DNA of 32,000 bases from Opitutales bacterium (GTDB taxonomy: Bacteria > Verrucomicrobiota > Verrucomicrobiia > Opitutales > UBA9783). The stretch lies in assembly GCA_046881885.1 (NCBI GenBank), contig JBKSMP010000006.1:30001-62000 (forward strand), read 5' to 3'. Positions within the stretch are counted from its first letter, which is position 1; each line of letters opens with the position of its first letter. Below are positions 13,266 to 16,711 of the stretch, piece by piece. The position numbers were made by a program, and so were the translations under genes. The notes under the pieces are model-generated. The model was not told the origin of the DNA. It did not search any database and was given only the letters and a program-made list of their open reading frames with translations.

Positions 13266-13907
13266 TTAGAACAACCTAGCCTGAGCGAAGTTTTTAGACT
13301 TATCTTTAGTTATTGAATGGGAATTAAAAAGTTTGTTGAGTGTATTTTTATAAGAGAAGTTAGGATACTGAAGGGGTTGCCAATGATTTTTGAGAAGTTC
13401 TTTTTGGCCGAAGGATTTAGTGATGCGTTGTTCGAGGTTGGTGGCATCTTGGGTGAAAACGCGGACGGATTTGCGTGCTCTAGAGATGGAAACATACCAT
13501 TGTTCTAGGGAAGTAGCTTTTTCGCAGCCGTCGTCGAATAAGATGACATGATCGACGGTTTTTCCCTGAGAAGCGTAAGAGGTAAGCGCATAACCGTAAA
13601 CGAAGAGACCATTATTGGGGGATAATTGGTAGGTTTCCTGAGCATCAGCAACGGTGAGGATTTGCTTATCCAAATCAATTGCAGTCACAGTTACTTGGGG
13701 ACCATTGGCAAGTTTTTGGCCGTTTAAATCTTTCATATTGCATTTTATTTGCAGAAGTTCACCTTTGGCAACTTCGAGCTGAGACGCTTGGGCGATTTGC
13801 CAACGTTCGGCGTATTTATAGTCGATACGATATGTTTTTTCGTTATAGCTTACATAAATTCCATCGAAATCTGCTTTTAAAAGCCTGCAAACGCTATACT
13901 GAAACAA
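13266..13907 (-). pseudogene. C-terminal fragment of a TraI/TrwC-type (MobF) relaxase-helicase
   Basis: The 213-aa ORF carries only the terminal helicase motifs (YALTSYASQGKTVDHVILFDD, WYVSISRARKSVRVFT). It has no Walker A/P-loop core and no relaxase domain. It is on the same strand as, and downstream of, the N-terminal fragment at 15602-16711. Confidence 0.75.
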
Positions 13908-14006
13908 CAGAATTAAGAGCTAAAGCAACTATATTTTAACATATTTAGTTAGATTCAACCATAAAATTTAATAAATAATTTTTAAATAATGCCGATATTA
14001 TAAAAT

Positions 14007-14948
14007 ATGAAATGCAATTTAATATTTGTTAATCTCATTTTTTCCTTTTCAAATTTACTGGGACAAAATATAACATGGACGGACTTTGAAGGACATATAA
14101 CATATGAAAATGGAGCTGAAGAAAGTATTGGTATTTTCTTAAAATCTAGGACTGATGATGAGATACAAGAAAAATTAACAAAACTCACATCGCAAGAAAA
14201 AAAAGATATGCACATCGATGAAACTGAATATGAACAATCAAAATTTATAAGAAAAAGTATTACAAATATTGTTAAAGAAAATATTGAAATTCTTTTAGGT
14301 ACATATAATGGCCAAACCTTACTAGCTGAAATAATAAAATTATTACAAGAAAAAGATAAAAAAATAACCTTTTGCTTTTGTATTGATGGTATACAAGTTA
14401 ACAACTTAAATTTTTCTATCGATCCTTTTGATTTATATAGTTCAACAAATTTTTATTTAAGAGGAGGAAGCATTGAAAAAAGAGCTTTACCAGATGTTTA
14501 TTTTTTTCATGAATTATGTCATATATATCATTATCTTTTAAACGATGATATTTTTACCAAACTAGGAAATGGAAATTTGCTAGAGGATTACCACAGTTCA
14601 GAATTTCCATTACCTGAAAAAGAAGAGGAAGAAAAGAAGACTAACATTTTCAGATATCATTTCCCTTCTACTATTCCTCAAAAAACTGATTATGAAGAAA
14701 TGAGAACTATTTTAGGTATTCCAAGTGAGAGGCCTATTGACGATCGAATATGGAAAGATTTAATTTGTGAAAATAGTTACAGGCAAGAAAAAGGATACAA
14801 GTTAAGAATAAACCTTTTAGATGGAAGGTTACCAATGAAAAAAATGAGGAAAACACAATCGTTAAATAACACGCAAGTATTGGATACTATAATAGACAAG
14901 CTTGTGAAAGGCAATTGTTATTTAATGTCGCATAAGTCTAAACAGTAA
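14007..14948 (+). CDS. secreted HExxH zincin, NleD/M91-like signature (P2)
   Basis: Signal-peptide-like N-terminus MKCNLIFVNLIFSFSNLLG. HELCH lies at 14508-14522 within VYFFHELCHIYHYLL. Downstream motifs are YEEMRTILGIPSERP and ICENSYRQEKGYKLR. It aligns motif-for-motif with P1. Confidence 0.75.
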   Translation: MKCNLIFVNLIFSFSNLLGQNITWTDFEGHITYENGAEESIGIFLKSRTDDEIQEKLTKLTSQEKKDMHIDETEYEQSKFIRKSITNIVKENIEILLGTYNGQTLLAEIIKLLQEKDKKITFCFCIDGIQVNNLNFSIDPFDLYSSTNFYLRGGSIEKRALPDVYFFHELCHIYHYLLNDDIFTKLGNGNLLEDYHSSEFPLPEKEEEEKKTNIFRYHFPSTIPQKTDYEEMRTILGIPSERPIDDRIWKDLICENSYRQEKGYKLRINLLDGRLPMKKMRKTQSLNNTQVLDTIIDKLVKGNCYLMSHKSKQ

Positions 14949-15566
14949 ATCTTTTTGTAAAATTGCTAGAGAATACTTTAAAAAAGTGTTATTATAAGTG
15001 CATAAATTAAAAGAAGAATTAAACCACTCTAAGTATTGCCTAATTTCATTTTGGTTGTCGTAAGATTCAATTTTACTAATTTCATCTAAAAATGCATAAC
15101 AACTTTCATAACAGTTTTTTTGATCATCAGAAAATTCTTCTAATAAATTTTTTAATACATATTCTCTAAGATCAGCCTGTAAAGGATAAGGGATTGTGTC
15201 ATTGGGAATATATTGCAAAATATCTTGTTTGAGATTGCATAAAAAACCTATAATCAATTTATTTTTTATAGGTAAATCTGAAAAGTTTTTTGAGCCTATA
15301 TTTTTATGAATTTCAAAATCCAACCATTGCGTATAAATTGTTGCTTTAGCAATAGGTGAATACTTTTTTTCTTTTAATGCTTGAAGTACGTATTGACATT
15401 CTTCGTAACATTGTTTAACGCTCTCGGGTAAATCATCTGGGATATTTATCTTAATATATTTTCCTGTACTTATAACATGTTTTTCTCCATCCAACAAAAA
15501 ACTAATTACTCCATAAGAAGATTGTACTGCTATAATAAAAACAAACAAAATATTATTTAATTTCAT
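14922..15566 (-). CDS. small secreted Cys-motif protein (S2), partner of P2
   Basis: The likely start is the Met at 15566 (MKLNNILFVFIIAVQSSYG, signal-peptide-like). There is an internal duplication of QCYEECQYVLQAL.. and NCYESCYAFLDEI... It also has a KNFSDLPIKNKLIIGFLCNLKQDIL block. Its 3' end overlaps P2 by 27 nt (convergent). Confidence 0.6.
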   Translation of the reverse strand: MKLNNILFVFIIAVQSSYGVISFLLDGEKHVISTGKYIKINIPDDLPESVKQCYEECQYVLQALKEKKYSPIAKATIYTQWLDFEIHKNIGSKNFSDLPIKNKLIIGFLCNLKQDILQYIPNDTIPYPLQADLREYVLKNLLEEFSDDQKNCYESCYAFLDEISKIESYDNQNEIRQYLEWFNSSFNLCTYNNTFLKYSLAILQKDLLFRLMRH

Positions 15567-15575
15567 AACCATTAT

Positions 15576-15605
15576 TTTATAATAAAAATAAACATAAAAT
15601 GTCAA
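15576..15605 (-). promoter_or_regulatory. sigma70-like promoter for S2 straddling the relaxase-fragment stop codon
   Basis: On the minus strand, TTGACA (15605-15600), an 18-nt spacer, then TATAAA (15581-15576), about 10 nt upstream of the ATG at 15566. Confidence 0.35.
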
Positions 15606-16711
15606 GGTAGATTCAATTTTGAAGTAACAAGCGTTTTGAGCGTTTTAAATGAACAATTTGCGAAGGTTTGTTGATTTAAAACCTGTGTTAAAAGTTCACT
15701 ATCACGACAACGTGTAGAACGTTCAAACCAATTCGCTTTTACAAAATTTAAAGTATCTTGAGCGCAACGTTTTTCAGCGTCTTCCGTCAAAGCTTGAATG
15801 GGTTCATGTTTGTTACACGTTTGCAAACAATGCCTGTCTTCTTCGGTGCATTGCTTTTGCCAATGTTCTAGCAATTCTTTTTTAGTAATATTTTTGTTTT
15901 TTCTTTGACGCGTTTGCATCCGCACTTGTTCTTTTACGTCATGAATATTTCTTGCTGTAATTCCTTTGTTTGCAAGATGATCGTGCATCGCTTGCTCAAT
16001 CGCTTGATGACGTTTTGAAAATTTTTTGATCATTTCATCTGAAATGCCATCGATTTCAAATGAAGTGCCTTTTGTGTGAACAGAATAACCAAGTTGTTTT
16101 AAGCCTTTTTGTAGTTCGTGATTGTAAATGCATGAAATATATTTTTGGACTTTTAAGATTTCGTATTTTTGTAAAGCTTTCAATTTGTTTTCAACTGCAT
16201 CAAATGTTGCATTAAAAAGAATGCAATGTGTGTGCACCATAGGATCTAAACTACGACTTGTATCGTGCACAAAAAGTCCAGCAATCATATTGCTTGTTTC
16301 GCGATCGGTCATGGCGTTATTTTTGCGTACGCGTGTGCATGCAAATTGTTCCATTTCGCTTAACGCAACCTTTACACTTTTTTCATGCAAATCGAAAATG
16401 CGTTCGTCTTGTAACGTTGCAACTAATGAAACACTTTTCGGACACGAAATAACAAAATCAGAAAAAATTCTACGTTTTTCTTTTTTGATCCGTTGCGTGA
16501 GTGTTTCTCCTGTTTCTGGATGTTTGCATTCACATAATGCAAGAAAATCTTTTTCTTGTATCGTTTTCGTTAAATTTAATAACTTGCAACCTGTTCCAAA
16601 CCATTGTCCAAATGTACGTCCATTTTCTGTATAATAATCACCGCCACATAAATGTTCTTGAAAATAACTTTTTGCATTTGTTAAAGAATATTGATGTTTG
16701 CATGTTATCAT
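15602..16711 (-). pseudogene. N-terminal relaxase domain fragment of a MobF (TrwC/TraI-type) relaxase
   Basis: The 369-aa ORF has a tyrosine-containing N-terminus (GGDYYTENG..GQWFG), SCPKSVSL and the 3-His motif HDTSRSLDPMVHTHCILFN. It terminates before any helicase domain. Confidence 0.8.

Follow-up and report, generated by a model that had tools for sequence, protein, structure and literature searches.

The locus described here lies in a stretch of 32,000 nucleotides (nt), hereafter the window, from a chromosomal contig of an uncultured, low-GC member of the Opitutales (Verrucomicrobiota); what remains of an integrated transfer element lies on this contig. The gene in question is a relaxase-helicase gene of the MobF (TrwC/TraI) type, which is present as two fragments on the reverse strand, relN (15602 to 16711) and relC (13266 to 13907). 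Between the fragments lie two convergent genes: P2 (14007 to 14948, forward strand) encodes a 313-amino-acid (aa) zincin-like protein, and S2 (14922 to 15572, reverse strand) encodes a protein of 216 aa when counted from its ATG, with the NCBI record placing the start two codons later. NCBI annotates relN as "MobF family relaxase" and relC as "hypothetical" (ACLRFH_00850), and lists P2 and S2 as ACLRFH_00855 and ACLRFH_00860. A preliminary description of this DNA had proposed that relN and relC, lying on the same strand and in the right order, are the ends of a single traI/trwC gene whose middle was replaced by the P2/S2 pair.

relN is a relaxase-domain-only open reading frame (ORF) of 369 aa, of which residues 1 to 362 are relaxase derived and the last seven (TSKLNLP), together with the stop codon, are read from inserted DNA. 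It matched Pfam PF08751 (TrwC) at 255 bits across model positions 3 to 285 of 286, the NCBIfam MobF model at 213 bits (cutoff, 100), and TIGR02686 at 184 bits (cutoff, 145.5). It also contains HDTSRSLDPMVHTH, the histidine-triad motif of the N-terminal HUH relaxase domain, as expected of a MOBF relaxase domain. relC is an orphan C-terminal helicase fragment of 213 aa, read from a TTG codon that lies 11 nt into foreign DNA; its relaxase homology extends from 13266 to 13896 (codons 714 to the end). This fragment matched UvrD_C_2 and the C-terminal part of TraI/TraA helicases and carries the motifs YALTSYASQGKTVDHV and YVSISRARKSV. When placed on the intact MobF protein (953 aa) of a Runella plasmid, relN covered residues 1 to 354 and relC covered residues 735 to 857. 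No trace of the P-loop core was detected in the window by tblastn with three full-length homologues, and neither fragment matched AAA_30. Domain matches and alignment thus agree with the strand and order first described for the fragments, and the tblastn and ORF analyses agree with the statement that the gap of about 1.7 kb lacks a P-loop core and holds the convergent P2/S2 pair instead. The gene in the window is a disrupted member of the MOBF family, not a working one. Outside its own allele family, its nearest sequence relatives were verrucomicrobial MobF genes at no more than 50% identity, and a plasmid database yielded only distant MobF genes (about 30 to 35% identity). Among the best 120 matches to relN, none was longer than 650 aa. 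In two more distant verrucomicrobial contigs, L003 (6001 to 8848) and L004 (6001 to 8812), MobF is called as overlapping ORFs (627 plus 335 aa and 557 plus 392 aa, respectively), for which a frameshift or an assembly error could be the cause.

The 90%-identity cluster of relN has 66 members, of which about 15 were seen; truncated proteins were found by way of this N-terminally anchored cluster. It includes intact relaxase-helicases of 922 to 924 aa (P0128, P0132, and P0140), and the intact alleles have the canonical fused architecture of TrwC domain, AAA_30 P-loop, and UvrD_C_2. Intact alleles occupy contigs L009 to L016, L021, and L022, where the upstream neighbors are those of the window (an 87-aa ORF, toxin-antitoxin-like pairs, and an ATPase). 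None of these intact proteins or loci has intervening genes, which argues against a gene pair that naturally interrupts this relaxase. A scan of a genome-contig collection with relN returned one intact allele, in another Opitutales metagenome-assembled genome (L021), and the same scan of a metagenome-contig collection returned no match.

Comparison with these alleles located the disruption to the base. By blastn, positions 6572 to 11085 of L009 aligned with window positions 20140 to 15627 at 98.6% identity, and positions 12139 to 12691 aligned with window positions 13896 to 13344 at 94.6%. Across the intact alleles, relN showed 96 to 98.6% nucleotide identity up to base 15627, and relC showed 94 to 95%. 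Base-level alignment to L009, L015, and L022 placed the junctions at 15627/15626 and 13897/13896. Missing from the window is the stretch from nt 1086 to nt 2138 of the gene (1,053 bp, or 351 codons, V362 to G713), within which the AAA_30/P-loop region falls (aa 428 to 589 of the intact protein). In its place is a foreign segment of 1,730 bp (13897 to 15626) with a GC content of 26%; the gene has 38.8%, and the part lost from it has 42.5%. The fragments have contiguous, nonoverlapping coordinates on the intact protein (aa 1 to 362 and 714 to the end) and belong to one allele family, and the base-level alignment bears out the proposal that the middle of one gene was exchanged for P2/S2. The most direct comparison comes from L022, in which positions 3996 to 6022 form a single 2,030-bp alignment with window positions 13896 to 11869 at 95.2% identity, covering relC and the downstream genes S1 and P1. 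As judged from these alignments, L022 is an empty-site comparator. Because it carries S1/P1 beside an intact relaxase gene, S1/P1 are native downstream cargo and P2/S2 alone are new here.

The split was recovered independently of the window assembly. A Logan contig (L001) was identical to window positions 13116 to 19149, both junctions included, and the relC-P2-S2 arrangement was present in three other assemblies (L005, L006, and L007) that were mutually identical where they overlapped; the split is therefore not an assembly artifact. Split and intact alleles occurred in the same samples (L005 with L015 in ERZ28593983 and L006 with L016 in ERZ27317801), indicating that both forms circulate together. 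Identity between the window and L005 differed sharply along the locus: the 3′ end of S2 was 100% identical and P2 with its upstream spacer 98.7 to 99%, followed by 93.6% for relC and 68 to 69% for S1 and the 3′ end of P1. The transition from the insert to relC takes place no more than about 10 nt from the junction. Most simply, homologous recombination among coresident elements would have placed the same insert beside different relC and S1/P1 alleles, or the reverse, and the one junction shared by the two lineages would point to a single origin of the insert. relC alleles, split or intact, are about 94 to 95% alike, and private synonymous:nonsynonymous changes in relC were 5:2 in the window and 7:1 in L005, compared with 7:2 and 1:3 in intact alleles. 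Since the alleles are equidistant and the split ones show no excess of private replacements, divergence in relC most simply arose in working genes, and the disruption would be recent. Together, these results suggest that the disruption is young and polymorphic.

We next considered what the insert encodes. P2 has HELCH at residues 168 to 172 and a signal-like N terminus, as judged by eye. Three relatives were found among 5.8 billion proteins, and a profile search of 1.84 billion cluster representatives yielded 26 representatives at an E value of ≤0.001. Across 29 sequences of this family, H168, E169, H172, H175, E230, E255, N256, and R259 are near invariant, so that the motif set of peptidase family M91 (HExxH, a downstream Glu, and the active-site Glu/Arg shared with botulinum light chains) is present. 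Of these sequences, 14 matched PF14891 at an E value of <0.01, with the homologue P0123 reaching 36.6 bits against a cutoff of 25. The family profile also aligned with residues 76 to 284 of the BoNT/A light chain (about 200 residues; E = 5e-4), in agreement with the published remote link, which includes this motif set, between M91 and the botulinum light chain (PMC6367388). By these profile and motif matches, P2 is assigned to a rare, divergent branch of M91, and with its N terminus it is predicted to be a Sec-exported zinc protease of the M91 type. A scan of the genome-contig collection with P2 returned no match, and a scan of the metagenome-contig collection with the P2 alignment returned only the contig of P0122, which is too short to show a partner gene.

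S2 lies on the relN strand and starts 30 nt beyond the stop codon of that fragment; its N terminus is hydrophobic and signal-like, again as judged by eye. It had no relative besides itself in the large protein database and matched no family in Pfam, NCBIfam, or PADLOC. An internal duplication in S2 was considered and found to be unsupported (E = 1), and no credible PADLOC match to a defense-system protein was obtained. One further contig, L008, which is low in GC and free of relaxase genes, encodes a homologue of P2 at 36% identity and, convergent with it, a homologue of S2 (32% identity over 92 aa; pairwise E = 2e-10). Because the S2 homologue is convergent with the P2 homologue there, the enzyme-partner pair appears to be a conserved unit, as seen in one informative relative. 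L008 also encodes proteins resembling IpgD-type inositol phosphatases and Glyco_transf_90 (16779 to 18584), which hint at a host-associated lifestyle of that relative, and part of a DUF4143 ATPase with 67% identity to the third copy in the window. In Salmonella, toxicity of an M91 domain is seen only upon its delivery to the periplasm, where a periplasm-located immunity protein neutralizes it (PMC13556075). Given that precedent, an exported protease with an exported inhibitor is the most economical model, and S2 would be an exported partner of P2, most likely one that shields the producing cell as an inhibitor or immunity protein in the periplasm.

We consider it probable, with good confidence, that one MobF gene had its middle replaced by P2/S2 in a decaying element, that transfer was thereby lost, and that P2/S2 encode an exported protease and its partner. 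A single nonhomologous replacement removed the codons for the whole P-loop/AAA_30 helicase core, and a 1.73-kb, 26% GC segment with two genes took its place. The products are a relaxase-only ORF that runs seven codons into the insert and an orphan C-terminal fragment without a proper start codon. Later, the insert allele or its flanks would have been shuffled among related elements by homologous recombination. TrwC/TraI-type relaxases need their own helicase to drive transfer. For this reason, the gene would no longer be able to mobilize the element, and loss of the helicase core should plausibly abolish transfer.

Several observations weigh against parts of this account. At the junctions, no microhomology, target duplication, repeat, or recombinase was found that would point to a mechanism. 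No domains of a type IV secretion system (T4SS) or coupling protein were detected among the ORFs of the window, and the element was for this reason perhaps already unable to transmit itself before the disruption. P2 itself scored only 15.4 bits against PF14891 (threshold, 25; E = 0.025). In addition, although the top Foldseek matches of its structural model (predicted local distance difference test score, 77.6) were botulinum light chains, these matches were not significant (E = 0.7). P2 and S2 are convergent, unlike the usual toxin-then-immunity tandem. Between the window and L005, the first 276 codons of P2 differ by 10 nonsynonymous and 0 synonymous changes, and in L005, L006, and L007, the P2 gene has lost 1 nt from an A-run close to its 3′ terminus (window 14837; L005, about 3470), so that the protein has 285 instead of 313 aa and the gene no longer overlaps S2 by 27 nt. 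From the 10:0 ratio and the frameshift in one lineage, it follows that P2 is under an arms race or in decay rather than under strong constraint, and the gene may be decaying rather than functional. Finally, two lineages retain an intact relC ORF with a low ratio of nonsynonymous to synonymous substitution rates (dN/dS; 0.16 versus L005 and 0.24 versus L022, compared with 0.08 for relN), which taken alone could mean that the fragment is still useful.

The alternative that survives best concerns the function of the insert rather than its position. P2 could be a host-directed, NleD-like effector that acts on eukaryotic proteins, with S2 an unrelated secreted protein or chaperone. The best-known M91 member is the NleD effector (PMC6367388), L008 carries the IpgD-type phosphatase gene, and a Fic gene adjoins the intact element. 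One P2 homologue comes from a very large NCBI assembly, and the fast amino acid change in P2 would fit an arms race. However, the N terminus of P2 is of the Sec type, which is not the context of delivery by a type III secretion system (T3SS) or type VI secretion system (T6SS). Moreover, conservation of the partner gene alongside the enzyme gene (32 to 36% identity) suggests functional coupling, and no host is known. We therefore regard a host-directed role as possible but on balance rather unlikely, and retain the exported protease with its dedicated partner as the preferred reading.

The window allele is not the only broken copy of this relaxase gene. A second, independent replacement was found in L017, L018, and L019, where gene nt 948 to 1938 (991 bp) gave way to about 1,644 bp of 26% GC DNA. 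In L017, a contig seen in 15 samples, this insert (7229 to 8871) encodes a 166-aa acidic ORF and a 355-aa ORF. The pair is distantly homologous (E of about 1e-6 for each protein) to a pair of 242 and 305 aa that lies downstream of the intact relaxase in L015 (4501 to 6136). The larger proteins of the two pairs share KNPNAxTD and HTE...MCxNCE and are deaminase-like, without a match to any Pfam family. Further alleles are cut as well, L020 at nt 951 (from position 2154 onward), P0129 behind aa 316, and P0133 behind aa 288, and P0139 carries a frameshift at aa 87, inside the relaxase domain. Three different sequences follow breaks that fall within 5 bp of one another (nt 947 to 951). This relaxase has been inactivated repeatedly in the population, and twice the same region was swapped for a two-gene enzyme-partner module. 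A palindromic repeat, AAGGGAACTTTTTGAAAAAAGCTTCCC, precedes the resolvase gene in the window (27628 to 27676), recurs in L017 (9403 to 9495) and in the tail of L020 (2713 to 2806), and cuts the relaxase at gene nt 2468 in L017 and L018. This repeat may mark a recombination site or the terminus of a small mobile element.

Such recurrence raises the idea that the linker after the relaxase domain is a recurrent capture site for two-gene modules of an exported enzyme and its partner. We consider this improbable, and a dedicated capture mechanism is only a minority possibility because sampling was biased toward the N-terminally anchored cluster. If the idea were true, it would imply an undescribed mechanism of cassette capture, possibly one that uses the element's own relaxase or resolvase, or, alternatively, selection that yields a relaxase-only protein and loads the relic with stabilizing weapon or immunity cargo. 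Relaxase-mediated capture at nic-like sites was considered and rejected, as no k-mer of at least 10 nt is common to the candidate origin-of-transfer region and any junction. The inserts of the window and L017 share no end sequences. A 13-mer, AATTATTTATTRA, occurs once near an end of each independent insert (window 13968 to 13980; L017 7243 to 7255) and in near-identical form after the break in L020 (about 2166), with no other exact copy in the window. As a shared end motif it was rejected, since the expected count of such a sequence in DNA of 74% AT is not negligible; it may be due to chance and is left unexplained.

Less likely still is that P2/S2 form a self-contained mobile cassette that inserts into relaxase genes by means of short inverted repeats or a site-specific enzyme. 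The preliminary description had read the pair as a module that moves as a cassette, and part of the evidence leans that way, if only indirectly. The insert is 98.7 to 100% identical in two lineages whose adjacent relC sequences differ by 6.4%, with the step lying so close to the junction. The second two-gene replacement affected the same region, other breaks cluster at nt 947 to 951, the convergent pair is kept in a different context in L008, and a resolvase gene is always nearby. The insert itself, however, has the features of neither a transposon nor a cassette. Its only ORFs are P2 and S2, with no recombinase, transposase, or integrase domain detected by Pfam, NCBIfam, or PADLOC, and neither the window nor the fetched loci contain a further copy at the DNA level. 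Target-site duplication is absent, and the two inserts have no end sequences in common. Relatives at the protein level are likewise scarce (only three for P2 and none for S2), and insertion alone would leave the 1,053 bp in place. Searches in other contexts recovered the intact relaxase and a P2/S2-like pair, but not conserved cassette ends. A group II intron or other RNA was also considered as the insert and rejected, as no Rfam match was found at an E value of ≤1 between 12500 and 17500 and the 1,053 bp of coding sequence are gone as well.

The short inverted repeat that had been put forward as a possible cassette terminus did not stand. Its coordinates, first given as about 13993 to 14003 and 15570 to 15580, are corrected here to 12-nt arms at 13996 to 14007 (forward strand) and 15573 to 15584 (reverse strand), each reading TATTATAAAATA. 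The arms are internal, lying directly 5′ of the P2 and S2 ATG codons at 100 and 43 nt inside the respective junctions. Among composition-matched random sequences as long as the insert, 60% had a perfect inverted repeat no shorter than 12 nt, and the 11-mer of the repeat, allowing one mismatch at most, occurred 7 times in the window against 5.7 expected, showing no enrichment. A promoter for S2 had also been proposed. The pattern is present on the reverse strand (15576 to 15605), with TTGACA at 15605 to 15600 and, after 18 nt, TATAAA at 15581 to 15576; it overlaps the relN stop codon (TGA, 15604 to 15602), and its −10-like hexamer ends 3 nt before the S2 ATG. As a promoter it is less convincing: promoter-like sites are not enriched in the region (12, compared with 20 in shuffled sequences), and a consensus scan did not list this pattern. 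S2 could equally be read through from the relaxase promoter.

We likewise regard it as doubtful, and slightly more so than the mobile cassette, that the split is functional, with relN plus relC, or relN alone, selected, for example, as a stand-alone nickase or recombinase, an interference factor directed at related elements that enter the cell, or a C-terminal secretion-signal fragment. All four characterized disruptions spare the relaxase domain, with breaks after aa 288, 316, 317, and 362 and the Pfam domain ending at aa 290. The low dN/dS values of relN and of the intact relC ORF point in the same direction, and NCBI annotates both fragments as genes, not pseudogenes. Against this, divergence that arose in intact alleles explains the low dN/dS: distances among relC alleles do not depend on whether the gene is split, and private changes look alike in both classes, so that the signature is inherited, and relC was rejected as a selected gene. 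The only start of relC is the TTG codon in foreign DNA. The frameshift of P0139 falls inside the relaxase domain, and sampling was biased to the N terminus. That the fragments come from two different relaxase genes, for example from adjacent truncated copies of the element with P2/S2 originally between them, is very improbable: relN is indeed nearer to the intact alleles (97 to 98%) than relC is (94 to 95%), but the same difference between N- and C-terminal parts separates L009 from L015, both intact (98.5% and 94.6%), the alignment coordinates abut with neither overlap nor duplication, and L022 has identical flanks on both sides of one intact gene, with no second copy of an element gene nearby. 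Decay of a single MobF gene by replacement of its middle thus accounts best for the locus.

The left part of the window is chromosomal, with a DnaE gene (3717 to 7331), a STAS/SpoIIE pair, a NUDIX gene, and a Zn_peptidase_2 gene. The genes to the right of the relaxase encode two HEPN/nucleotidyltransferase pairs, three AAA_14/DUF4143 ATPases, metallo-beta-lactamase-fold proteins, and a resolvase. The tandem HEPN-like/nucleotidyltransferase pairs and AAA_14/DUF4143 ATPases are found at 17370 to 18855, 18911 to 20143, 23077 to 24375, and 30030 to 31304, and the first HEPN/nucleotidyltransferase/ATPase set adjoins every allele of this relaxase. Directly upstream of relN, an intergenic stretch with two hairpins and an ORF of 87 to 92 aa (16712 to 17205) always adjoins the gene; the hairpins (16770 to 16798 and 16805 to 16821) are a candidate origin of transfer (oriT), in which no nic site was definable. 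The backbone of the element is kept (the 87-aa ORF, two HEPN/nucleotidyltransferase pairs, the DUF4143 ATPase, and the resolvase), and the cargo downstream of the relaxase is variable, consisting of P1/S1, a deaminase-like pair, or Rpn/YoeB with T4SS genes. Downstream of its intact relaxase, L009 carries a TraG-like P-loop gene.

In the window, the native cargo P1 and S1 occupies 11341 to 13207 on the forward strand. P1 is a zincin paralogue with HEMLH and a likely start at 11482. Its similarity to P2 is confined to the neighborhood of HExxH (E = 5e-6), and a relationship between the partners S1 and S2 was rejected (E = 0.22). Relative to L022, the region from 12817 to 12850 has a 1-nt insertion near 12848 that puts the S1 ATG (12817) out of frame; because of this shift, S1 in the window lacks the first part of its signal-like N terminus unless a TTG start is used. 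Between the convergent S1 and relC, a GC-rich hairpin with T-runs on both strands (13236 to 13252), also present in L005, looks like a bidirectional terminator.

Taken together, these results describe a clear and fairly ordinary case of mobile-element decay, to which the recurrence of such replacements adds a curious twist. (i) Since filled and empty alleles both circulate, the locus offers an unusually clean, dated, and base-resolved example of how such an element loses mobility and gains cargo, in an order of bacteria about which little is known. (ii) A very rare zincin branch related to M91 and the botulinum light chains, with a conserved partner, makes a testable protease-inhibitor or toxin-immunity pair. 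(iii) Recurrent replacements in the same stretch of the gene, if true in a census, would suggest targeted swapping of cargo into transfer genes.

Compared with known systems, the window gene shares with TrwC of R388 and TraI of the F plasmid a complete N-terminal HUH relaxase domain with the three-histidine motif. It differs from them in that the helicase core (aa 362 to 713) is missing, the gene is in two pieces, and coupling-protein and T4SS genes are absent within 32 kb. A relaxase gene interrupted by a mobile insert is known from the Ll.LtrB group II intron in ltrB of Lactococcus pRS01. The likeness lies in foreign DNA within the coding sequence of a transfer relaxase; the event in the window, in contrast, is a replacement with loss of 1,053 bp. 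The insert encodes neither a reverse transcriptase nor a recombinase, no intron was detected in it, and it cannot be spliced out.

P2 shares HExxH and the downstream conserved Glu with the M91 proteins NleD of Escherichia coli and SED_RS06335, the Rhs-M91 T6SS toxin of Salmonella Dublin. As in the pair formed by SED_RS06335 and its immunity protein, SED_RS06340, P2 would meet its partner in the periplasm. In contrast to NleD and SED_RS06335, P2 is a stand-alone protein with its own signal-like N terminus, not a T3SS substrate or an Rhs tip, and S2, in contrast to SED_RS06340, is a convergent partner unrelated in sequence to any named immunity family. At the level of the whole element, decaying relics of integrative conjugative and integrative mobilizable elements carry cargo hot spots beside their transfer genes. 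The locus resembles them in its conserved backbone, variable cargo downstream of the relaxase, and many inactivated relaxase alleles, and differs from the usual accounts of their decay in that two independent events swapped the same ~1 kb of the relaxase gene for enzyme-partner modules of ~1.65 to 1.73 kb.

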